A DNA stretch of 29,349 bases from an uncultured Spirochaetales bacterium (lineage in GTDB: Bacteria; Spirochaetota; Spirochaetia; ARS1246): NCBI GenBank assembly GCA_964387575.1, contig CAYLZA010000001.1, positions 1 through 29,349 on the forward strand, given 5' to 3'. Positions 16,879-28,571 of the stretch are shown piece after piece. Each line of letters opens with the position of its first letter. The first letter of the stretch is position 1. A program made the position numbers and the translations under genes. A model generated the notes under the pieces. That model was not told where the DNA came from and did no database searches. It saw only the letters and a list, made by a program, of their open reading frames with translations.

Positions 16879-18003
16879 TCACCTGATAATCATCCGTTTG
16901 GAAATTTGCTGCAACCGGGGTCGCAGCATCGAGACCTCTTCATACAGCGGCTCGAGCACTCGGCGTCTCCACAATTCAAACCAGCGTGAGTTAACACCGT
17001 TTTCAAAGCTGCTCTCGAGGCTGTTTATCTCCGACGCAATCTCCTCAACCACCTGCTCCAGCGCCTGAAGCGTTTCACAACCGCCATGAAATGAGGCTTC
17101 CGCTGTCGGGGAATCGTGTATTCCGCGAACGATTTCCTCTCTGCATTTGCCTACCATCCGCCATCCGTTCCGCCGCTGCGAATCTATTCGCTCGATCGAT
17201 CGACGAATCCCGCTCGACCGGGTGTGTTCCGTGCACTCGTCGGTACCGGCTACCGACAGGATCGAATCGAGTGACGCTTCCAACCCTGTCTCGGGATTTT
17301 CGGCCATCACACATCTCGTCCATTCCGGAGTTGCGGCTGATTCGGAAGCTATGTCATCCAACAAAGAAGGAGTCCCAAAGACCCAACGTGTGCCGGCAGG
17401 CGCGTTATCACAGTGGTTCTCGTCCCACGCGCACCTGTATCTCTCCACCGCTTCAGGCATCGAAGTTATCGCCGTTTCAATCCGTGAATCAATCACGAGA
17501 GTAATCCCCATATCAACCGAGGCCCGAATCATCTTTGAGAGGATTTGCCCACTTATATGCGGGTCGAACAACGAACCGTTTTTCCCGGCGGCAATCAAGA
17601 CGCGCGTAGAATCGGGGAAAAGCGAAACCAGATCCTCGATCATATCAATAGCTGCTTTACTCACACCGGCGACGGAAATATCGAGATCAGGTTCGTGAGG
17701 AGAACGAAAATGCTCGAAAGGTTTCAGGTAGCGAGTTCGATCATCATCTGTGAACAACGACATAACAGGAACCGCTTCGCCGTCCAGATCGTCTACCGTT
17801 TTCGCACACGCTTCAATCGCCTGATCGGTGTACGCATACGCGGGAAGATGCGCCTCGCCGAAACTCCAGGGAAACAGCTCTGCAAAATCAAAAAAAAACA
17901 CGCCGATATCGGCATGACCGATCGATCGGACGATACTGATGAGTCGTTCCGGCGTCGGGGGGAAGTACCTGAAATCGAGATATACACCGTTTGGGACGAT
18001 CAT
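16879..18003 (-). CDS. Hypothetical protein resembling a GH20 (HexD/GcnA-like) barrel without the catalytic Asp-Glu
   Basis: GVYLDFR..PP..ERL...FFFDFAELFPW...AYTDQAI...EAVPV...DMIEDLVSLFP...VLIAAGKN parallels the HexD-like HLDLKG.PP / EYEDMFP / IPL / HIGxDE pattern; judged by eye. Start at ATG 18003. Confidence 0.55.
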   Translation of the reverse strand: MIVPNGVYLDFRYFPPTPERLISIVRSIGHADIGVFFFDFAELFPWSFGEAHLPAYAYTDQAIEACAKTVDDLDGEAVPVMSLFTDDDRTRYLKPFEHFRSPHEPDLDISVAGVSKAAIDMIEDLVSLFPDSTRVLIAAGKNGSLFDPHISGQILSKMIRASVDMGITLVIDSRIETAITSMPEAVERYRCAWDENHCDNAPAGTRWVFGTPSLLDDIASESAATPEWTRCVMAENPETGLEASLDSILSVAGTDECTEHTRSSGIRRSIERIDSQRRNGWRMVGKCREEIVRGIHDSPTAEASFHGGCETLQALEQVVEEIASEINSLESSFENGVNSRWFELWRRRVLEPLYEEVSMLRPRLQQISKRMIIR

Positions 18004-18054
18004 CTGCGATTTATTGTACACGCCGCGCTCCGGTGAAAACAATATACTATGACA

Positions 18055-18254: not shown

Positions 18255-18824
18255 TTACACTCGACGGACGTCGATCGTTTCGGGAATCGTACACTCCCCG
18301 TCCCGCAGAAGCACGTAAGGATGCTGCGTCACATCGAGAATCGTCGATGGCTTTCTATCAGGGAGCGTGCCCGCGTCGACGATGAGATCCACCGATCGTC
18401 CGAACACGCGTGAGATCTCTTCGACGCTTTTCAATGGAGGCTCACCGCTACGGTTAACGCTGGTGGAATAGATCGGACCGACGGACCTGATGACGTCGAT
18501 TAGAAACGCGTCGTCCGGCACACGAACCGCTCGTGCCCCTGATCCCACCGGGATGATGAGCGTAAGCGGTCCGGGCCACAAGGACAAAAGCTCAATTTCG
18601 ATGTTTTCCGACGACATCTTTTTTACCGATTCAGCTGATTCGACCAGCGTAATAAAGCGTTTTTCCGAAGGTCTGCCCTTTATCCGGGCGATTTTCTCTT
18701 CAGTTCCCGGTGCAATACCGACGAGACCGTAAATCGTATCACACGGAAGGACCGCGACACCGCCCTCTTTGAGGATTCGGGCGATGTGGGAGATGCTATT
18801 TTCACTTTCGACGGGAATTACCAT
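18255..18824 (-). CDS. tsaC: L-threonylcarbamoyladenylate synthase, stand-alone YrdC/TsaC type
   Basis: VLPCDTIYGL, IKGRP, WPGPLTLI, AVRVP, STSVNRSG, PSTILD; start at ATG 18824 or TTG 18833. Confidence 0.92.
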   Translation of the reverse strand: MVIPVESENSISHIARILKEGGVAVLPCDTIYGLVGIAPGTEEKIARIKGRPSEKRFITLVESAESVKKMSSENIEIELLSLWPGPLTLIIPVGSGARAVRVPDDAFLIDVIRSVGPIYSTSVNRSGEPPLKSVEEISRVFGRSVDLIVDAGTLPDRKPSTILDVTQHPYVLLRDGECTIPETIDVRRV

Positions 18825-19239
18825 AACCAACAAATGTCAGCAACACGTACAGCGAAACGGCAACGATACACCCGATTAATCTGAAGAATGCATCCTCGGT
18901 TCCCTTCGCATTATACGATTTGATCATTCTCCCGAGTGTCCGATGAAGTGAAGCATCCGATTGATTCGGCGTGAATATTCGAACTTCATTTGGTTTAAAA
19001 TACCCAATGCTTCGTGCCCGAAGTACGATTTCATCCGCCTCCGACAGGAGCATATTACGTTTTTCGCGGAGCTCTTCGCCGATCGCCTCCAGCTCAGCGA
19101 CATTCCGTTCCAGCTCGCTTTTATGCTGCATTATATCTCTGTATGCAAAAATACCGGCATCTCCCCATAGAAGCAACATACACTCATACACAAAAAAACC
19201 GACATATATGGATAATGCGATACGGAGTCCGGTTTTCAT
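18802..19239 (-). CDS. Septum formation initiator family protein (FtsB/DivIC-like)
   Basis: Single N-terminal TM, WGDAGIFAY, coiled coil, then ARSIGYFKPNE..IF (typical AR.LG...E.E motif); extra C-terminal hydrophobic helix. Confidence 0.8.
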   Translation of the reverse strand: MKTGLRIALSIYVGFFVYECMLLLWGDAGIFAYRDIMQHKSELERNVAELEAIGEELREKRNMLLSEADEIVLRARSIGYFKPNEVRIFTPNQSDASLHRTLGRMIKSYNAKGTEDAFFRLIGCIVAVSLYVLLTFVGYGNSRRK

Positions 19240-19356
19240 ATTTCAAGTTACGGCCTCGGCATCCGATTTCTTTAGGAGGTACGTCGAAGATTATGGAAAG
19301 CATGAACAGTACATTTGATGTATCTTTTTGCTTTTCATAAATTTATCAACGCGGCA

Positions 19357-19385
19357 TTGATTTTTACCGACAATTACAGTACTGT
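19357..19385 (+). promoter_or_regulatory. Possible sigma70 promoter of the acidic-protein operon
   Basis: TTGATT (19357-19362), 17 nt, TACTGT (19380-19385); the -10 overlaps the palindrome ACAGTACTGT. Confidence 0.4.
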
Positions 19386-19409
19386 GAATCATAGACTCGG
19401 GAGTTGCGC

Positions 19410-21962
19410 ATGGCCACTAATCCGGAAACTTTGTCCAGCGAGAAAGATCGGGGGCACCACCTGACATCCGAAAACAATGCTCTTAACAATAACGATGACG
19501 ATCTCGAGCAGTACGGTGTGTGGGTAAAAGTAGGTCCCGAGGATGTAGAGGAAGAACCTCCTGCTGAGGATTTCGAGCTCGAGAGCCTGCAACCCGATAT
19601 GGGTGAAAGCGAGGGCCTCACCGAAGAAGAGGAACAATTGCTTGGAGATCTCGAACAAAACGAAGAGCAGGACTCAGAAGAATCGAGCTCAATCGAAGAT
19701 ATCGATCTTTCTGATGATTTTAGTCTCGATGATACCGAAGATTTGTCGACATCCGCCGACCTCGATCTGGAAAAGGGACAGGAATCGGAGGATCTCGACG
19801 AAATAGATATCGAGGATGCCGGCGAAGAAGATTCGCTCGAAGAGCTCGATATAGAAGAGCCCGACGAAGAGCAGTCTCTCGAAGAGTTCAGCCTCGACGA
19901 TGTTGACGATTCCGAATCTCTTGACGATTTTGGTGACGAAGAAAGCGGGGAGACCGACACATCTACTCAGCTGAACACCGCCGCGGCGGATATTGAAATC
20001 GAAGATCTCGGGGACATCGATCTCGATGAGGATTTCCCCGAGGAAAGCGAAACGGACGAAGAATCTGAAGAGGAAGCTACATCACTCGAGTCACTTGAAG
20101 AAGAGGTATCTCTCGAAAGCGACGACGAGGATATGGCATCGCTCGAGGAGCTGCCGGATCTCGATATGGAAGAAGAGCTTCCTGAGCTCGATGATCTTGA
20201 AGAGCTCGATCTCGAAGAAGAATCATCAGAGCCCGAGGGAGAACCGGACGAACAGTCCGAACCTGAAGAGCTTCAGGGCGAAGAGACAACGGAAGAAGAA
20301 TCATCGGGTGACACAGCCGAGGAAATAGAGAGTCTTGAAATTGAGGAGAATGACTCCTTGCCGGGTGCCGATGAGGATCTCGATGATATCGATCTCGAAG
20401 AGCTCAAACAATCCGATTTTGGCGAAGACCTGGCGGAGCTCGAAATAGAACAGGATGAGATTTCCGATGAAATAGAGAATATCGACTTGGACGATGAACC
20501 GGAAGAGATAGAAGAGCTCGTTGAAGAGTCGGCTTCGTCTTCGGAAGATACGGATACCGAAGACGATTTGGAAGAGCTTACCGCCGACCTGGAGGAAGAG
20601 GAAGTTCCCGAGGCTGAGGAATTATCAGACGATACAGATACGGACGATTCGGATATCGATGATCTCGCCGCGCTGGAAGAAGAAATACTCGCCGACGAAG
20701 CCGAAGACGCGGAGAGCGATATGTCTTTTGCAGCTGATGTCGAATCGGACGAAACGCAGAATCTCGATATAGAGGATACCGATACGTTGAGCAACGAAGA
20801 AGAATTTGCAGACACCGTAACAGAAGAACCCTCGGGTGAAACATCGGAGACGCTCCAGAATATCGAACGCGAGTTACATGCAATACGCAATGAGCTGTCC
20901 TCGCTCAAGTCTGAGCTTGCATCGTTTCGCTCAACGGCTCCGAAAACGACTGAACAAACCGGAGAAGAACCGGAGCAAACCGAATCAGCCGGATTCTTCG
21001 ATGAAGACGAAGATGAAACAATCGCTCTAACCGGCGATGAGCTCGATAATATACTGAATACCGCAGACATCACCGAGGAAACCGAGGGAGAATCCGAGGT
21101 TCCCGAAGAAGATGATCTGCTTGATGATCTTCTCGAAGATATGGATTCCGAGGGCGAAACCGAGGAAGAAACCGCCGAGAGCGAGACCGAAGAGTTTGAT
21201 ACAACCGGATCCGCTCTGACCCTCGAGGAGGAACTTCAGGAGTCCGGCGGCGAAGAGGAACCGGAAACGTCGGAGAGTGACGAAATCGATTTTTCGTTTG
21301 ATCAGGAGCCTGAAACTGCAACGGAAGAAGCGCAGACGTCGGCGGAAGATATCGAAGAACCTGACGAGCTCGAGCTTGACTCAGTTATTGGTGAAGGTGG
21401 AGACGAAGAAGAGCTTCTCGGAAAAGAGAACATCATACCGATGGATGAAACCGAGGAGACAGCAACCGAAGAGGCTTTTGATACGACCGAAGATACCGAG
21501 GAAGCACCCGCCGCCGAATCGGAGGGTGAAGATATCGATCTCGAATCGGAAGCAGTGGATATTCCGGTCGACACCGATATAGAAGAGACTGAAGAAAGCA
21601 GCGAGACCGACACGGAAGAAGAGGAAGAGATCGTTCTCGAGCCGTTTGCCGAAGAAGATGATGAAAGCGAATCGATCGACGAAATCGAGCTCGACATCGA
21701 GCCGACGGAAGAGGAAACCGAGGAAGTCGAATCCTTAGAGGAAGCGGCGGAAGAAATGTCCGACGAGCCCGAACGGCACTCCTCCGACTTGCAGGAAAGA
21801 GAGGATATTCCTGACGACGTACGGGAAGAGCTGAAAACCGTACTGTCATATCTCGACCGGCTTCTCGAATCGCTTCCGGACGAGAAAATCCAGGAGTTTG
21901 CTCGTTCCGAACATTTTGAGGTGTACAAACGGCTTTTCGAGGAACTTGGTCTCGAGACGTAA
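19410..21962 (+). CDS. Large, extremely acidic low-complexity hypothetical protein with ordered N-terminal, central and C-terminal islands
   Basis: Open 851-codon frame; GGGAG SD 6 nt before ATG 19410; roughly 40% D+E by eye, no Cys, one Trp; non-repetitive segments DDLEQYGVWVK, LQNIERELHAIRNELSSLKSEL, FFDEDEDETIALTGDELDNIL and a helical C-terminus. Confidence 0.88.
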   Translation: MATNPETLSSEKDRGHHLTSENNALNNNDDDLEQYGVWVKVGPEDVEEEPPAEDFELESLQPDMGESEGLTEEEEQLLGDLEQNEEQDSEESSSIEDIDLSDDFSLDDTEDLSTSADLDLEKGQESEDLDEIDIEDAGEEDSLEELDIEEPDEEQSLEEFSLDDVDDSESLDDFGDEESGETDTSTQLNTAAADIEIEDLGDIDLDEDFPEESETDEESEEEATSLESLEEEVSLESDDEDMASLEELPDLDMEEELPELDDLEELDLEEESSEPEGEPDEQSEPEELQGEETTEEESSGDTAEEIESLEIEENDSLPGADEDLDDIDLEELKQSDFGEDLAELEIEQDEISDEIENIDLDDEPEEIEELVEESASSSEDTDTEDDLEELTADLEEEEVPEAEELSDDTDTDDSDIDDLAALEEEILADEAEDAESDMSFAADVESDETQNLDIEDTDTLSNEEEFADTVTEEPSGETSETLQNIERELHAIRNELSSLKSELASFRSTAPKTTEQTGEEPEQTESAGFFDEDEDETIALTGDELDNILNTADITEETEGESEVPEEDDLLDDLLEDMDSEGETEEETAESETEEFDTTGSALTLEEELQESGGEEEPETSESDEIDFSFDQEPETATEEAQTSAEDIEEPDELELDSVIGEGGDEEELLGKENIIPMDETEETATEEAFDTTEDTEEAPAAESEGEDIDLESEAVDIPVDTDIEETEESSETDTEEEEEIVLEPFAEEDDESESIDEIELDIEPTEEETEEVESLEEAAEEMSDEPERHSSDLQEREDIPDDVREELKTVLSYLDRLLESLPDEKIQEFARSEHFEVYKRLFEELGLET

Positions 21963-23027
21963 ATGGGGCTTCTGGACAAAGCACGACGGAATACGGGATC
22001 GGAAACCACCGTATCCGAACCAACAAGTGATCCACGCCTAAAAAAAAAGAGCTTCCACGCAAAAGATGAAAGGGACCAATCGGGTATTCTGAAAAAGAAG
22101 TCCGATCAGATTCTCGTCGAACAGCTTGTCAACAATCTCGCGGCCTATCATCGCGATCTCTCTTTTCCGCTTCCGGTTTTTCGGGCGATCGTTGATTCCA
22201 TCGATCTCGACGCGGCCGCGTTTCTTTTCGCAGACGCCCCCGGCGGTTACTACATACCCGTAGCCTCGGTTGGTTTCGATGTAACATCACGGCGACGGAT
22301 GCACATACCGTTGCAGTTGCTCGATCAGAATCATCGCTTGCTCGATGGTTGTTATATGCATGTCGGCCGCGACGGCCTGACATTTCTCGAACAATTTTTT
22401 TCGATTCGGGAATACGGGATGCTCGAGGAAATTGTTTTTGTTCCGTTTAATCACGAGGGGACGCCTTTCGCGGTACTGTTGATCGCCTACCATATCGAAC
22501 ATACCCGGTCGATAGAGCGTGAAGCCGATCTTGCTCAACAGATTGCACAATCGTTGAGCAAAGACCTTTACGAAGCCCGCGTACGTAAGATGCACAATCT
22601 GCCGGTACATGAAGAAGATGAAGCGGATACGGGTATAGCCGATCTTGTTTCGCGTGCGGATCGAGATCAAATGCGATTACTCACGGCCATATTCTCCCTT
22701 GCTGGTCTGATTGAGTCGATTGTTCCGGATCATGAATTTGCGGATACATATCTGTTTCGCACTGATCTCCTCAGAATATTCAAGTCCTTTATTTCATCAA
22801 ACGGCTGTCTGGTATCGCTTGGCGACGATACGTTTGTCCTGTGCATCCTGACACGAAGCGTGTCGGACGAGCATTTTATCCTCTATCATATCGGGTTAAG
22901 CCTCCAGCGTTTCTACTCACGATCCCTCGATTTTCCCTTGGTTGTTGATACGGTTCTCTACTACCCCGACGACGTCTCAAGCGTAGACGAGCTTTTTTCC
23001 AAGCTGGGTGTAGAACGTGAACAATGA
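21963..23027 (+). CDS. Hypothetical protein: basic N-terminal tail, GAF-like domain, possible degenerate GGDEF-like C-terminus
   Basis: Starts directly after the upstream TAA; AAAFLFAD...YYIPVASVGFDVTSRRRMHIP...VFVPF...FAVLLIA reads as GAF-like; C-terminal VSLGDDTFVL only weakly recalls GGDEF. Confidence 0.6.
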   Translation: MGLLDKARRNTGSETTVSEPTSDPRLKKKSFHAKDERDQSGILKKKSDQILVEQLVNNLAAYHRDLSFPLPVFRAIVDSIDLDAAAFLFADAPGGYYIPVASVGFDVTSRRRMHIPLQLLDQNHRLLDGCYMHVGRDGLTFLEQFFSIREYGMLEEIVFVPFNHEGTPFAVLLIAYHIEHTRSIEREADLAQQIAQSLSKDLYEARVRKMHNLPVHEEDEADTGIADLVSRADRDQMRLLTAIFSLAGLIESIVPDHEFADTYLFRTDLLRIFKSFISSNGCLVSLGDDTFVLCILTRSVSDEHFILYHIGLSLQRFYSRSLDFPLVVDTVLYYPDDVSSVDELFSKLGVEREQ

Positions 23028-24571
23028 TCGAAGTTCATTCCACCCGTTCCGGTAAGAAAACGGCCTCCATCCACGGTAAAGCCCTTCACTCAGCCTATGA
23101 TCCGGAAACGCAGGCTCGTCGGTACGTAGAACGCAGCTTAACCGAGGCGCAACCCTCGGTTGTGTTGATCATTGGTGAGTGCATGGGGTACGTATCCAAT
23201 GCCGTCAAGGATGCATTGCCGAGCACGAAGATCATCGCGTTTTATCTCGATTCACAGCTCAGACCTCACACCTGCCAACACGACGGGAGTATGTGGTTTC
23301 CGGATTCCAGGATGTCGCCGTTTGAGTATCTTCGCTCGCTTCTCTACGAGCAGGAGGCGGAAGGGCTTAAAGTTCTCGAATGGGCGCCGGCAATGCGGGT
23401 GTGGACCGATAACGCGTCGCTGGTCGCACAAGCGATCGGCGATATTATTCGAGAGCTCACCGGGAATATTGCTACGACAACGGGATTCGGGCGTATTTGG
23501 CTGTCGAACGCAATAAGAAACAGCCTGGAGCTCCCTGAAACAATGTGTTCGTTAAATCAAGGAGGCACTGTATTGATCGCCGCATCGGGTCCGACTTTGG
23601 GCAAAACGCTTCCCTATATTAAGGAATACCGAAATCGATTCGAGCTTTGGGCACTCCCTTCGTCGCTACGATCGCTTGTCTGCTACGGTATCGAACCCGA
23701 TCTCGTTGTGACCACGGATCCCGGATTTTATGCATCGCTTCATTATCGATATCTCCCGGAGACACCCGTTCCGACGGCGTATCCACTGACGGCGGCGTCA
23801 CGGATTCCGACCAACGGAAGAGACGCGATCCTGCTCAATCAGAACAGTTTTTTCGAAAACAGCATTCTCCGAGTCATCGATACGCACGCCTGCCCCGTGC
23901 CTGCAAACGGAACGGTCGCGGGTACCTGCCTTTTACTGGCTCATGCCTGCGAAAAACGGGTACTATACGCAGGACTGGACTTCGTCGGAGACGATATCAG
24001 AAATCACGTTCAACCGCACACGTTTGACGAGTTGATCCGTGAGACTTCTGAACGAATCCGTCCGCAGACGAGCATCCTGTATGAGCGATTCCACCGGATG
24101 AATCCGATTCAAATCACCGACCGGGCATATACAACGAGGGCTCTTCGAACGTATGCTTCCTGGTTTGATCGATATGTGAACAAACACGACGATCTCGACG
24201 TCTACAGGTTACTCTCCTCCCCGTTCCATCTCGATTCGGTAATTGATATTGACGAAAGCGATATACAATCTTTTTTGTCGAATTTACCTGACTCATCGAC
24301 AGGTATCGGTATACGAAGAGCAACACCGGGTCGTGAGAACGTTCGAAGCGGTCTTTCGGATCTGGTAAACAACTGGATACGCACACTCTCCCGTGAGAAC
24401 ACGGAGTACCGGAACACCCGACAACAGTTGCTCTATCTGCTCGAAACTCGGGCAATACTCGACGCAACCGAGATCCGACGAAGAGGATGTACAGAGGAAG
24501 CCGATAAACGTGAACGCGATGCGGTCGAGTCGGCGGTGGATTTTCTCCAATCGCTCAGTATGATTCTGTAA
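23024..24571 (+). CDS. Maf/DUF115 (MptE-like) family protein, paralog 1, divergent motifs
   Basis: ALHSAYDPETQA, WLSNAIRN, LIAASGPTL, PDLVVTTDPG, GTVAGTCL, YAGLDF; ATGA overlap with the upstream gene. Confidence 0.75.
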   Translation: MIEVHSTRSGKKTASIHGKALHSAYDPETQARRYVERSLTEAQPSVVLIIGECMGYVSNAVKDALPSTKIIAFYLDSQLRPHTCQHDGSMWFPDSRMSPFEYLRSLLYEQEAEGLKVLEWAPAMRVWTDNASLVAQAIGDIIRELTGNIATTTGFGRIWLSNAIRNSLELPETMCSLNQGGTVLIAASGPTLGKTLPYIKEYRNRFELWALPSSLRSLVCYGIEPDLVVTTDPGFYASLHYRYLPETPVPTAYPLTAASRIPTNGRDAILLNQNSFFENSILRVIDTHACPVPANGTVAGTCLLLAHACEKRVLYAGLDFVGDDIRNHVQPHTFDELIRETSERIRPQTSILYERFHRMNPIQITDRAYTTRALRTYASWFDRYVNKHDDLDVYRLLSSPFHLDSVIDIDESDIQSFLSNLPDSSTGIGIRRATPGRENVRSGLSDLVNNWIRTLSRENTEYRNTRQQLLYLLETRAILDATEIRRRGCTEEADKRERDAVESAVDFLQSLSMIL

Positions 24572-26196
24572 TGACGATGGCCAATACCGTTCTTTCGCGA
24601 AACATTGAAGCGCTGAAAAAACGTCATTCCCGACTTGCAAACGAAATCTCCCGTACTCGTCCGTCGGACCGGATTTCGATCCTCCAATCGAGAAGCGAGC
24701 TTACGGTCCCGGCGGTAAAAACCGCGACAGGCGACAAACCGCTCCATTCGAGGGTCGATCCGATTCGCGAAGGAAGACGGATGTTTGATTCGACGTTAAA
24801 GGACGAGTGCCCCGGCTTCGTCGTAGCGCTCGGCGTGGGTGGTGGTTATCAGATGAAGCCGTTGATTGAGTCGGATTGGGTCGTCTCGGTTGTCATCGTT
24901 GAAACGGATCTTCGAGCATTTCGGTCAATACTCGAACATGTCGATTTGAACTGGCTTTTTGATGATTCACGGGTTTCGATCTTTGTCGAGGAGTCGCTGA
25001 GCACGATTTCCGGATTCATCGGCGGCTCCTATCATCCGCTTATTCACGATAGCTACGCTCTTTACCCTCTCAGAAGCCGGATGATCCACGATGACGCCTG
25101 GTTTTCGAGTTGCCTGCACATGCTCGAGGAGACACTTGAACGAATTTCGTGGGATATGTCGACACAATCCCGGTTCGGCCGCATTTGGTTCCGCAATACG
25201 GTGTATAACCTCACATCACTCCCGTTCTCCGAACAGTCTCTTCCCGAAATTCGCAGCGCGGTCGTCGTTGCCGCAGGGCCTTCGCTCGAAGATACGGTGT
25301 CCGACTTACGGAGCGCAAAAGACCGGCGAACGATAATCGCTGTAGACACGGCGGCACCCGCACTTGCCGTCCACGGCATAGTTCCCGATATCGTCGTCAC
25401 AATCGATGCACAACTCGTCTCCTACCACCACGTATTTGCTCCACTACCGGCACAATCGCTCCTGGTTGCCGACTTGTCGGCGTCGAGGGTCGTCGCTCAT
25501 CGTGCCGGCCGTCGGGTATTCGTGAGCGGGGGCTTTCCTCTCGGCCGCTATTTTGCGAAAGAGTGGGAGAGCTCCTGGATACCAACGATCGACACAACCG
25601 GTTCGAACGTGACCTATGCCGCCGTCGATCTGGCGATTCGTCTCGGAGCCACTCAGATTGATCTCGTGGGGGCGGATTTCTCGTATCCACGAGGAAAACC
25701 GTATTCGCGCGGGAGCTATATATATCCGTTTTTTTTGAGTACATCATATCGTACACAACCGGTGGAAACGCTTACGACCAATCTGGTATTCGGCTCCCAA
25801 AACGCTCGCGTCGCAGCTTCGGACGGTACGGTACGCTACATACCGAAAAAAATGGAGCGGTACCGGGAAGCTCTTGAATCACTTCTCGGGCGATTCGAAC
25901 AGTCTCGTCTGGCCGTAACGGATCATATTCGCAATCGACTACCGATACAACCGAAACAGGTCGAACAAACCCTGATCCGATATAATGAAACTCTCACGGC
26001 TTTGCCGCGCCCCGTGGACCCTCTCTACGGATATATACAAAAGTTGAGCGCAGAGGAACGGGCAGTTCTCAATACGCTGTTTCCCACCGCGCTTCATTTA
26101 CACAGACGTGCGCATCAGACCCCGGCTCAAGTCCTGGAGCACTCACGCCGCTGGGCGGTAGATCAAGTGACCGCATCGTTAGACGGATTTTCATAG
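24571..26196 (+). CDS. Maf/DUF115 (motility-associated factor, putative nonulosonic-acid glycosyltransferase) family protein, paralog 2
   Basis: PLHSRVDPIREG, VALGVGGGY, WFRNTVYN, VVVAAGPSLED, IAVDTA, PDIVVTIDAQ, GSNVTYAAVDLAIRLGA..I.LVGADFSY; TAATG overlap. Confidence 0.82.
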   Translation: MTMANTVLSRNIEALKKRHSRLANEISRTRPSDRISILQSRSELTVPAVKTATGDKPLHSRVDPIREGRRMFDSTLKDECPGFVVALGVGGGYQMKPLIESDWVVSVVIVETDLRAFRSILEHVDLNWLFDDSRVSIFVEESLSTISGFIGGSYHPLIHDSYALYPLRSRMIHDDAWFSSCLHMLEETLERISWDMSTQSRFGRIWFRNTVYNLTSLPFSEQSLPEIRSAVVVAAGPSLEDTVSDLRSAKDRRTIIAVDTAAPALAVHGIVPDIVVTIDAQLVSYHHVFAPLPAQSLLVADLSASRVVAHRAGRRVFVSGGFPLGRYFAKEWESSWIPTIDTTGSNVTYAAVDLAIRLGATQIDLVGADFSYPRGKPYSRGSYIYPFFLSTSYRTQPVETLTTNLVFGSQNARVAASDGTVRYIPKKMERYREALESLLGRFEQSRLAVTDHIRNRLPIQPKQVEQTLIRYNETLTALPRPVDPLYGYIQKLSAEERAVLNTLFPTALHLHRRAHQTPAQVLEHSRRWAVDQVTASLDGFS

Positions 26197-27011
26197 AGCA
26201 CGCCCGCATACCCTACAAACGAGTCCGACGGATGAACATCCTTGCTTGTTCGATAGTCGATCAGTTTCCCTCGTCTTACCCCCGCCGCCTCGGAAAACGA
26301 AAGCGCACACACCGCAGCCCCGGTGGAACAGGCGGCCTTGTTTCGTGTACCGTGCTCGAGTGCCGCCTGCGCATCGAGCGCGCATAGTGCATCAACGAAT
26401 TTCGCATCGTTTTCATTGCGGACCCACTCGTATGCGTCGCTCCCCGTGCCTTTGGGGGTGAACCCGTACGCTGGACCATAATGCGTGAGATCGGTCGATC
26501 CGATGACCGCTATCGAGTGACCCGATTTGGTGAGATCATGGAGATAACGGCCTAATTCGACGGCGCGCCTACCCGGAGCAATTCGAACACCAACGACACG
26601 TATTTCAGGGGCGGTGTATTTAACCAGCGGGAGTTGTACTTCCACGGTATTATCCGGTTTAGAGTCGGGCTGTGCTGCGAAACGTTCGATTATCGCATTA
26701 CGCACACTCACATCAGCTGAAAGATTACCGATGGGTGTCTCAAATGCATCCTCCGGATACACGAGAAGCGTGTCGCCCGGCGGCAGATGACCGCCGCACA
26801 CCACACAGGTGGATATTTCCGGTGAAAGCTCGCGAAGTACCGAAAGCGCAGTTCTGCCCGAAAACATCCAGCCCGCGTGCGGCACGATCCCGGCGATACC
26901 GCTCGAACGCGATTCTTCCAGATCGCGATCCCATTCGTCGAGTATTCTTCTGGTTTCCTCGTAAGATTTCGGATACCACCCTGCAGGCAAAATCCTTTTT
27001 CGAATGTTCAT
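26163..27011 (-). CDS. MEMO1 family protein (AmmeMemoRadiSam system protein B-like)
   Basis: AGWYP, IVPHAGWMFSG, FETPIG, TVEVQLP, GSTDLTHYG, AACSTGA, FVGYAG; GAGGG SD. Confidence 0.9.
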   Translation of the reverse strand: MNIRKRILPAGWYPKSYEETRRILDEWDRDLEESRSSGIAGIVPHAGWMFSGRTALSVLRELSPEISTCVVCGGHLPPGDTLLVYPEDAFETPIGNLSADVSVRNAIIERFAAQPDSKPDNTVEVQLPLVKYTAPEIRVVGVRIAPGRRAVELGRYLHDLTKSGHSIAVIGSTDLTHYGPAYGFTPKGTGSDAYEWVRNENDAKFVDALCALDAQAALEHGTRNKAACSTGAAVCALSFSEAAGVRRGKLIDYRTSKDVHPSDSFVGYAGVLYENPSNDAVT

Positions 27012-27102: not shown

Positions 27103-27130
27103 TTTACAATAGTGCAATTTGCCGTATAAT
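27103..27130 (+). promoter_or_regulatory. Sigma70 promoter predicting a leaderless mRNA
   Basis: TTTACA (27103-27108), 16 nt, TATAAT (27125-27130), 7 nt, then ATG 27138; no SD. Confidence 0.7.
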
Positions 27131-27137
27131 TGGACAT

Positions 27138-28571
27138 ATGGGGAGAAAGATAATCCAGGCGTTTTCGCTTTTCAGCATCGCGGTATTTGTCTTTATCATT
27201 GTATGGTTTGTCTTCAGAGCCATCAATACTCGTTCCGCGAATATCGAGCAGTCGGAGCAAAAAACCGAGCAAATCAAACAATCGATCATATCGTCGGTGT
27301 TGGCGGGAGGCGGATTTGACTCGAAGCAGACATCTCGGACCATTGCGAGCTCGTTTCAACAAAATCCGGATCTGAAGCTGCTTGCAATACACGATGTGGA
27401 AGGAAGATTGGATTATCTGTACGCAGTTTCGAATGCTTACATCCCCAAAGATACCGAGCTCGGCGGAGATCGTCTTCTCCTTCCCGAGCTCCGTCACAGT
27501 GGTATCAGCGAAGAACAACTCGATACGCGGATGGTCTTTCCGGACAATTCGGTTCGGTCGATAACTACGATTCATAGGGTGCTCGACCGGGCGGACGTAT
27601 TTCCGATAATTCGTGAAGTTCTCATCGCGCTTCTTTCGTTCCTTCTGATAACCGCAGTTATGATAGTCGTTTTTCCGTATATCGAAAAAAAACGATCGGG
27701 AGCAGATATTTCGGGTGCCGCCGCCGCAACGGAAGCACCCGACGAGCCGTTCACTCCATCGGATACCGGAATCGGTTCGGAGCACGGGGATATCCCGGAA
27801 GATACAACGCGTTTTCGCGGAGAGCCCGGCGGCGATATCGACGGCACTCTAGATATCGAAGAACAGGCTGCGGTCGAGACGCCGGTCACGAACAGCGCCG
27901 ACCAATCCGGAACGACCGTGGCCGAGAAAGCGTTCGAGACGCCGGTCGAGGCAACAGGCGAACCACCTTCCGACCGACCGATCGAACAGCCGGCGGCGAC
28001 GGCAGCCGATACGGAGACAGGGGAACACACTCAGGAACACTCGCCGGCACTGGAGTCACACGATGAGTCTATTGAGTCTACTCGCGGGCTCTACTCTCCG
28101 AACAGCGAGCTCGGATGGGAAGAGTATCTCGAGGAGAGACTGAATACGGAGCTCAAACGGGCGGCATCGTTTGATCAGGATCTGGTTTTGATGCTGATCT
28201 CGGTTCCCTGGGCGCGTCGAGGAACACAGGAGTACGTTGCGGTAGCCGAAATGGTGCGGGAGTACTTCGCGTTTCGCGATCTCTGCTTCGAATACGGCGA
28301 AATTGCATTTGGCGCGATTGTCCCTAACGTAGAGCTCGATCAGGGAATGGAAAAGGCGCAGGAGTTCAGAGAAATACTGCTCCCGCGTGCGGCTAAGGAC
28401 ACGACTCCTTCAATAGGATTGAGCGCGCGAAATGGTCGTTTGATGAGCGGGATGCGGCTTATCAGAGAAGCAGACCGGGCGCTCGTTCATGCCCGTGACG
28501 ATGATGACGGAATCGTCGCTTTTCGCGTTGACCCCGAAAAATACCGTTCATATATCGCGTCAAAGAGCTGA
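27138..28571 (+). CDS. Two-TM membrane protein with an extracytoplasmic domain, acidic linker and degenerate GGDEF-like domain
   Basis: TM1 FSLFSIAVFVFIIVWFVF, TM2 VLIALLSFLLITAVMIVVF; C-terminus LEERLNTELKRA...LVLMLI...RDLCFEYGEIAF...SIGLS...LIREADRAL..AR follows the GGDEF fold pattern. Confidence 0.75.
   Translation: MGRKIIQAFSLFSIAVFVFIIVWFVFRAINTRSANIEQSEQKTEQIKQSIISSVLAGGGFDSKQTSRTIASSFQQNPDLKLLAIHDVEGRLDYLYAVSNAYIPKDTELGGDRLLLPELRHSGISEEQLDTRMVFPDNSVRSITTIHRVLDRADVFPIIREVLIALLSFLLITAVMIVVFPYIEKKRSGADISGAAAATEAPDEPFTPSDTGIGSEHGDIPEDTTRFRGEPGGDIDGTLDIEEQAAVETPVTNSADQSGTTVAEKAFETPVEATGEPPSDRPIEQPAATAADTETGEHTQEHSPALESHDESIESTRGLYSPNSELGWEEYLEERLNTELKRAASFDQDLVLMLISVPWARRGTQEYVAVAEMVREYFAFRDLCFEYGEIAFGAIVPNVELDQGMEKAQEFREILLPRAAKDTTPSIGLSARNGRLMSGMRLIREADRALVHARDDDDGIVAFRVDPEKYRSYIASKS

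Follow-up and report, generated by a model that had tools for sequence, protein, structure and literature searches.

This locus raises the question of what purpose is served in a spirochaete by two adjacent Maf-type glycosyltransferase genes that lie directly behind the genes of a giant acidic protein and a GAF-like protein. The DNA analysed (the window) comprises the 29,349 nucleotides (nt) of contig CAYLZA010000001.1 (assembly GCA_964387575.1, positions 1 to 29,349, forward strand) of an uncultured Spirochaetales bacterium. Four open reading frames (ORFs) were confirmed on its + strand at 19404/19410-21962, 21963-23027, 23024-24571 and 24571-26196, and are termed here g1, g2, g3 (MafA) and g4 (MafB). 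A first-pass annotation had taken them for one coupled unit that might serve the glycosylation of flagellin. The four genes form one real conserved operon in spirochaetes, including the agent of syphilis, and the two Maf-type enzymes probably put sugars on flagellin.

A conserved operon in Spirochaetia

The three gene junctions were read from the sequence and agree to the nucleotide with those given previously. On the + strand, the TAA stop codon of g1 (21960-21962) abuts the ATG start codon of g2 (21963-21965), g2 and g3 overlap in ATGA (23024-23027), and g3 and g4 overlap in TAATG (24569-24573). For g1, the ATG at 19410 is preferred over the TTG at 19404 as start codon because a Shine-Dalgarno sequence, GGGAG (19399-19403, + strand), is located 7 nt upstream of it. 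Scans for promoters and terminators within the operon found no excess over shuffled sequences.

Conservation was assessed with a phyletic sample of 41 genomes (this genome and 40 relatives from 38 families of the class) and with 20 re-annotated loci from different Spirochaetia families. A search of the 40 relatives found matches to the g1 C-terminus, g2, MafA and MafB side by side, and 18 of the 20 loci have the genes arranged as g1-g2-MafA-MafB. In four of these 18, a divergent g2 missed by BLAST fills the gap, two of the four possessing the MGLL.K start that is typical of g2. The exceptions are one locus without g2 and MafB and one that stops at a contig edge. Overlapping or abutting junctions were seen among 19 orthologous loci for g2-g3 (18/19), g3-g4 (16/19) and g1-g2 (10/19); this recurrence shows that the tight spacing is no chance feature of the present genome. 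Gene order is clearly conserved beyond this genome, and the first-pass idea of a single coupled unit therefore withstands the refutation that had been named for it, an order confined to this genome.

The block is also present in a single-contig genome of 1.14 Mb that resembles that of Treponema pallidum, where the g1 match lies at 197.8 kb, the published position of TP0179. Here the genes for DivIC and Sua5 are divergent from TP0179 (627 aa), which is followed by a g2 homologue (hhalign 98%), MafA, MafB and a 477-aa protein, with all ends overlapping. As a separate observation, MafA of one complete genome (G008; L033:9138-10600) is split into two overlapping ORFs in different frames, possibly owing to a frameshift or a sequencing error.

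The four proteins

MafA (515 aa; 23024-24571, + strand; PF01973, E 2.5e-13) and MafB (541 aa; 24571-26196, + strand; PF01973, E 1.5e-29; Maf_flag10_N, E 5.7e-6) are Maf-type glycosyltransferase paralogues, as had been noted. Both pass the cut-off of 34.6 bits for PF01973 (MptE-like/DUF115) with 50.6 and 103 bits, respectively, and MafB also passes that of the Maf N-terminal domain PF20157 (26.4 bits against 23.5). No PF20157 match at E<=1 was found for MafA with Pfam; its fold match to the solved Maf of Magnetospirillum (PDB accession no. 5MU5) spans that region nonetheless. The AlphaFold2 model of MafA (pLDDT 90) has 5MU5 as its top PDB match over the full length (E 4.3e-14, TM 0.55 over 629 columns), whereas the matches to SteA and to archaeal HPPK are confined to the core and far poorer. 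MafB was aligned to 5MU5 directly (phmmer E 3e-8). Residues E324 and D415 have been described as critical in the Magnetospirillum enzyme (bioRxiv 10.1101/2020.06.03.131540), and in this alignment they correspond to the putative catalytic residues D279 (25405-25407, + strand) and D369 (25675-25677, + strand) of MafB, which are kept in 17 orthologues. The putative catalytic residues D232 (23717-23719, + strand) and D319 (23978-23980, + strand) of MafA, invariant in 20 orthologues, sit in the same columns, and Asp is found at both places in all MafA and MafB orthologues; a conserved Ser/Thr motif is retained in both groups as well. By their residues, both enzymes look catalytically competent, and they represent distinct, separately conserved orthologue groups. 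A division into one catalytic and one dead Maf was considered and is rejected at the known critical residues: both paralogues keep both acids, which leaves an active/dead split unsupported.

MafA and MafB share their three-domain fold, critical acids and Ser/Thr motif with the Mafs of Magnetospirillum, Campylobacter and Aeromonas and with Maf-1 and Maf-2 of Shewanella, and like these they are found in genomes that encode flagellin and a NeuB-type synthase. They differ in that they do not lie beside the flagellin or nonulosonic-acid genes, which are located elsewhere in the genome. MafA further lacks the DT motif after the GPSL loop (its ALPSSL takes the place of A(T/V)DT in MafB and the other paralogues) and any Maf_flag10_N match. 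The spirochaete tandem is also set apart by its two orthologue groups, its coupling to a GAF/GGDEF-like protein and its position behind a giant acidic protein. A precedent for accessory proteins exists: Maf-2 enzymes of Shewanella and Kurthia require the cis-encoded adaptor GlfM (bioRxiv 10.1101/2023.12.03.569772), a small non-enzymatic factor that is encoded next to the Maf and needed to engage flagellin. GlfM folds as a four-helix bundle of 89 residues and its gene lies downstream of maf-2, whereas the candidate partners here, g2 (354 aa) and g1 (850 aa), are encoded upstream; no GlfM-like ORF is present at this locus.

Two more Maf paralogues are encoded in the same genome (G000 contigs C97:5745-7658, + strand, and C148:2771-4558, - strand), one directly after a gene for a PBP2/FtsI-type transpeptidase and the other adjoining a SurA/PpiD-like gene. 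A set of three or four Maf genes is likewise encoded by most relatives.

The product of g2 (354 aa; 21963-23027, + strand) consists of a conserved N-terminal MGLL.K peptide, a disordered linker and two domains, and belongs to a discrete family of about 560 clusters at 50% identity. It has no Pfam match, the GAF models missing E<=1 for the window protein. An AlphaFold2 model built from a 20-sequence alignment (pLDDT 84, pTM 0.78) was compared with known structures using Foldseek, which places a GAF domain at about residues 39-211 (nt 22077-22595, + strand) and a degenerate GGDEF-like domain at about residues 221-348 (nt 22623-23006, + strand). The matches include the isolated GAF domains 3TRC, 3CI6 and 5W10 (target TM 0.6-0.7), the GAF-GGDEF protein Dcsbis, and PelD, and those in AFDB are clusters annotated as 'GGDEF domain-containing protein'. 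The earlier description as a GAF-like protein consequently holds for the N-terminal half and fails for the C-terminal half, whose fold is GGDEF-like. While architecture and fold are those of PelD (4ETX) and Dcsbis (4ZMU), g2 is without the GG(D/E)EF active site, without the RxxD motif that PelD uses for cyclic di-GMP (c-di-GMP) and without a membrane anchor. Neither the GG[DE]EF signature nor the RxxD site was found in any of 21 g2 homologues; the window protein reads GDDTF at the position of the former, which is variable in the 20 other homologues, and in none of them does RxxD occur five residues ahead of the degenerate motif. An active diguanylate cyclase and a PelD-like c-di-GMP receptor were both considered for g2, and both are rejected since the respective motifs are missing.

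The product of g1 (850 aa; 19410-21962, + strand) contains 43% D+E and 2.4% K+R and belongs to the TP_0179 family (Pfam PF27359). Among 18 orthologues, length (526-1054 aa) and acidic content (29-44% D+E) vary with the acidic body. Alignment of 19 orthologues reveals four conserved islands, the C-terminal domain among them. N-terminal conservation (19500-19655, + strand) is found at residues 31-46 (DLEQYGVWVKVGPEDV) and 70-82 (LTEEEEQLLGDLE), and the central islands (20853-21080, + strand) are the coiled-coil-like residues 482-507 and the near-invariant motif GFF..DETIALTGDELDNIL.TADITEE at residues 528-557. The helical C-terminal TP_0179 domain (residues 801-850; 21810-21959, + strand) has 10 invariant residues in 21 sequences, and a search with its alignment found the domain at more than 420 spirochaete loci. 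Assignment to PF27359 was made through the annotation of relatives (120/120 among the matches listed), the name TP_0179 (Pfam 38.1) being taken from Atlas; the older Pfam set, which does not contain PF27359, gave zero matches for g1. The domain is shared with TP0179 of T. pallidum, and TP0179 is the first gene of the corresponding block in the T. pallidum-like genome. The orthologue of TP0179 in that genome (L126:9783-11666) contains 19% D+E as against 29-44% elsewhere, and it retains the conserved islands.

No function is attached to the TP_0179 family; a literature search for PF27359 found no paper, and TP0179 itself is mentioned only as a hypothetical gene that is recombinant and in part under positive selection. 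Nothing on TP0179 was seen in the part of the T. pallidum two-hybrid supplement that was covered, and membership in the g1-g2-Maf block is not established for TP0183, which is named in the two-hybrid paper. With its long, disordered acidic stretch and a short helical domain conserved at the C-terminus, g1 resembles HubP/FimV and PopZ in layout, and some relatives are labelled 'FimV' by JGI pipelines. Homology to these proteins is nevertheless rejected: the likeness lies in composition and layout, no LysM, FimV C-terminal or PopZ domain was matched in g1 with Pfam, and the islands are unique to the TP_0179 family.

Proposed role in flagellin glycosylation and competing explanations

A sigma-28-type motif precedes the operon at 19346-19373 (+ strand), consisting of TCAA (19346-19349), a 16-nt spacer and ACCGACAA (19366-19373). 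It was found by matching the pattern T[CT]AA-N16-[GA]CCGA[TCA]A. In the window, as in 16 of 18 other Spirochaetia loci, 37-46 nt separate the -10 element from the start codon of g1, while the intergenic sequence upstream of g1 is otherwise unalignable among them; by chance, one such hexamer in a 10-nt window would be expected in <1% of loci. At the level of sequence, a motif of the TAAA/TCAA-N15-16-GCCGATAA type thus occurs at a conserved place in a genome that encodes FliA (292 bits). CCGACAATTA is also located upstream of flaB on contig C307, and no sigma-28 motif was found at another flaB (C26). Within this genome as a whole, the pattern yields no clean flagellar regulon.

Gene content points in the same direction. 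Flagellin, a strong NeuB match and Maf occur together in 34 of the 41 genomes; in six, flagellin and Maf are both absent and the NeuB-like match is no more than weak, and one small genome encodes flagellin but neither NeuB, Maf, g1 nor g2. The present genome encodes three FlaB proteins, FlgL and a NeuB-family synthase, all on other contigs; its assembly is fragmented (642 contigs, 83% complete), and the remaining genes of the sugar pathway were not found in it. The synthase gene (C257:1924-4210) adjoins a gene for a GGDEF-EAL protein on a short contig. In T. denticola, four or five Ser/Thr residues of the FlaB proteins bear an O-linked nonulosonic-acid glycan that is essential, according to PMC13439194, citing Kurniyati 2017. 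The conserved motif, FliA and the co-occurrence of Maf, flagellin and NeuB lend support to the link with flagellin glycosylation that had been put forward.

The operon is accordingly considered, with somewhat better than even confidence, to be a late-flagellar (sigma-28-class) unit for the O-glycosylation of FlaB flagellins. From what is known of the family, MafA and MafB would act as two non-redundant transferases that attach CMP-activated nonulosonic acid to flagellin at Ser/Thr residues while the protein is still in the cytoplasm, prior to export, and the donor sugar would come from a NeuB-family pathway encoded elsewhere in the genome. Structure and context suggest that g2, coupled to MafA, is most likely a non-enzymatic adaptor or a ligand-responsive regulator of the Maf pair, a role analogous to that of GlfM in function and not in fold. 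The disordered g1 with its docking-type islands would most likely hold the components together, perhaps including flagellin or its chaperones. This is the weakest step of the proposal, and the polar assembly site envisaged in the first-pass annotation is a hypothesis.

Beyond the class, the g1 C-terminal profile was detected in 164 of 201 genomes and in 101 of 105 genera of the phylum. By family, it was found in 23/23 genomes of the Leptospira-sized f47, in 2/24 of f52 and in 0/3 of the Borrelia-sized f27. Of 25 loci from other classes, 9-10 have a gene of GAF or GAF/GGDEF build behind g1 (Pfam and BLAST matches), and these distant genes show weak profile homology to g2 (hhalign 42%). What comes after this pair differs: Maf or a Maf pair in five loci, the flagellar assembly protein FapA (PF03961) in three lineages outside the class (L128:7425-8294, L129:7238-8119 and L150:5259-6146), and an MBOAT acyltransferase in two Leptospira-sized genomes (L127 and L136). 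As the third gene varies outside the class, g1-g2 gives the impression of an older core that has the Maf pair as a frequent client. It is conceivable, as a tentative extension, that g1 and g2 are a spirochaete-specific scaffold-adaptor pair of a so far undescribed type, made up of a giant polyanionic disordered protein bearing a small number of invariant docking peptides and a ligand-sensing pseudo-cyclase, which would recruit lineage-specific flagellum-related clients (the Maf pair, FapA, MBOAT) and so link the modification of flagellin or the assembly of flagella to some signal or site in the cell.

The same distribution would be expected if g1 and g2 were an older phylum-wide module, one that marks or times flagellar assembly sites with division for example, is co-transcribed with varying clients and has no role in glycosylation chemistry. 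This is regarded as unlikely, less so than any other alternative below. It would account for the presence of the TP_0179 domain in nearly all genera, for the GAF/GGDEF-type gene that often follows g1 outside the class with a variable third gene, for g1-g2 being the loosest of the three junctions and for the constant divergence of g1 from divIC; PMC13712777 describes spirochaete flagellation as coupled to division. Against it stands that g1 and g2 were not found in Borrelia-like genomes, which are flagellated but NeuB- and Maf-negative, and this absence fits a link to glycosylation better than a general link to flagella or division. The tight coupling of g2 to MafA in all but one of the 19 loci and the weak homology of the distant-class GAF/GGDEF genes to g2 likewise speak against it.

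Several observations weigh against the proposed role in flagellin glycosylation, or against parts of it. Annotation of the window genes with Pfam found no flagellin or sugar-synthesis gene within the window, in agreement with the first-pass annotation, and a search for RNA data listed no run for the operon. Neither the T. pallidum-like and T. denticola-like loci nor those of other classes yielded the sigma-28 motif, and the loose pattern is only about 2-fold enriched over shuffles within this genome, so that the weight of this evidence rests on positional conservation. Prediction of a complex of the g1 C-terminal domain and g2 with MafA (partner: g2) gave a score of 0.00, which is evidence neither way. 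Genomes of f52 encode flagellin, NeuB and three unlinked Mafs with no detectable g1; either Mafs can work without g1, or g1 of f52 has diverged beyond recognition. Judged by this gene content, g1 is apparently not required wherever Mafs act. The Mafs of the Leptospira-sized lineage are encoded apart from g1-g2. Because the genomes in the sample are related to one another, the counts overstate independence. The flanks are also kept across loci, with DivIC and Sua5 on one side and Memo, the 477-aa protein and an MBL-fold protein on the other, which weakens the argument from synteny taken alone and makes it possible that the arrangement partly reflects genomic inertia.

It is improbable that MafA and MafB target something other than flagellin, such as the Ser/Thr-containing acidic g1 itself or other envelope or periplasmic proteins. 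The maf genes do lie beside g1 and not beside flagellin, and two of the four Maf paralogues of this genome adjoin cell-envelope genes (PBP, SurA-like). However, every Maf characterised to date acts on flagellin, Maf follows flagellin across the 41 genomes (34 with both, six with neither and one with flagellin alone), and a sigma-28-type motif precedes the operon.

Genomic inertia carried to its end, with an arrangement kept only by slow rearrangement of this chromosome region and four genes that have no common function, is very improbable. Unrelated flanking genes (Sua5, PCMT, Memo, MBL) have been kept in place too, as it would predict; yet it leaves unexplained that start/stop overlaps are conserved across families, that a single conserved promoter motif stands ahead of g1, that the entire block is retained in the reduced genome of 1.14 Mb and that Maf genes have come together with g1 again in several other classes. 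Finally, it is scarcely credible that the DUF115 proteins act like SteA, an actinobacterial division regulator with an MptE-like core, and that the operon belongs with the adjacent divIC to cytokinesis: a weak NCBIfam SteA match for g4 (E 0.016) and SteA structures among the Foldseek matches of MafA stand against core-only alignments to SteA (TM 0.2) where 5MU5 is matched over its full length (TM 0.55, E 4e-14), a Maf_flag10_N domain in g4, and non-flagellated relatives that lack these genes and still divide.

If the operon does serve flagellin glycosylation, likely spirochaete flagellin transferases can now be named, as two distinct Maf orthologue groups; neither transferases nor helpers are described in the literature searched. 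That search covered Maf/DUF115 in Treponema and spirochaetes as well as TP0179-TP0183 and found no description of the module, as the first-pass annotation had supposed. The operon provides a first functional context for two conserved 'hypothetical' proteins, one of them of the T. pallidum TP0179 family, which had been noted only for signals of recombination and selection, and opens the role of the partner proteins g1 and g2 to testing. Survival of the block in the 1.14-Mb T. pallidum-like genome argues for its importance. The proposal extends the recent idea of dedicated adaptors for Maf enzymes, and the operon lends itself to the study of how an enzyme pair would work together with a dead GGDEF protein and a disordered polyanionic one. 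Beyond the operon, its relation to TP0179 and the promoter motif, the analysis adds the phylum-wide g1-g2 core, the degenerate GGDEF domains, the apparent catalytic competence of both Mafs by their residues, and the counter-example of f52.

Flanking genes

Upstream of g1, a DivIC/ftsB-like gene is encoded divergently at 18802-19239 (- strand; Pfam DivIC, E 4.2e-8), which bears out the divergence from a cell-division gene reported previously. The next gene beyond it, at 18255-18833, encodes Sua5/YrdC and forms with divIC a conserved pair of upstream neighbours, adjoining g1 in most of the 20 loci and in the T. pallidum-like locus. Between the genes for Sua5 and PCMT lies a gene for a 387-aa protein without Pfam match (16879-18042, - strand), a neighbour in many loci too. 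Downstream, a convergent Memo-family gene (26163-27011, - strand; Pfam) overlaps the 3' end of g4 by 34 nt; it is a neighbour in many loci and is missing from the Treponema-like ones. The other genes in the window are of housekeeping type (glycine cleavage system, RecJ, RecO, Lon, VanY and PCMT).

The 477-aa protein (hyp477; 27138-28571, + strand) is a conserved neighbour encoded on the same strand as the operon. A membrane segment anchors it, and its GGDEF domain is degenerate, PF00990 being matched by 10 of 17 orthologues (best E 2.9e-7); with hyp477 and g2, two dead-GGDEF proteins are thus encoded in this neighbourhood. Wherever Memo is absent, including the Treponema-like loci (L126:4565-5980 and L034:4516-5946), hyp477 lies directly after MafB on the same strand, and this placement makes it a possible fifth member of the operon. 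In the window, a near-consensus sigma-70-type motif (TTTACA-16-TATAAT, 11/12; 27103-27130, + strand) ends 8 nt before the hyp477 start, which suggests a leaderless mRNA or a true start codon further downstream.

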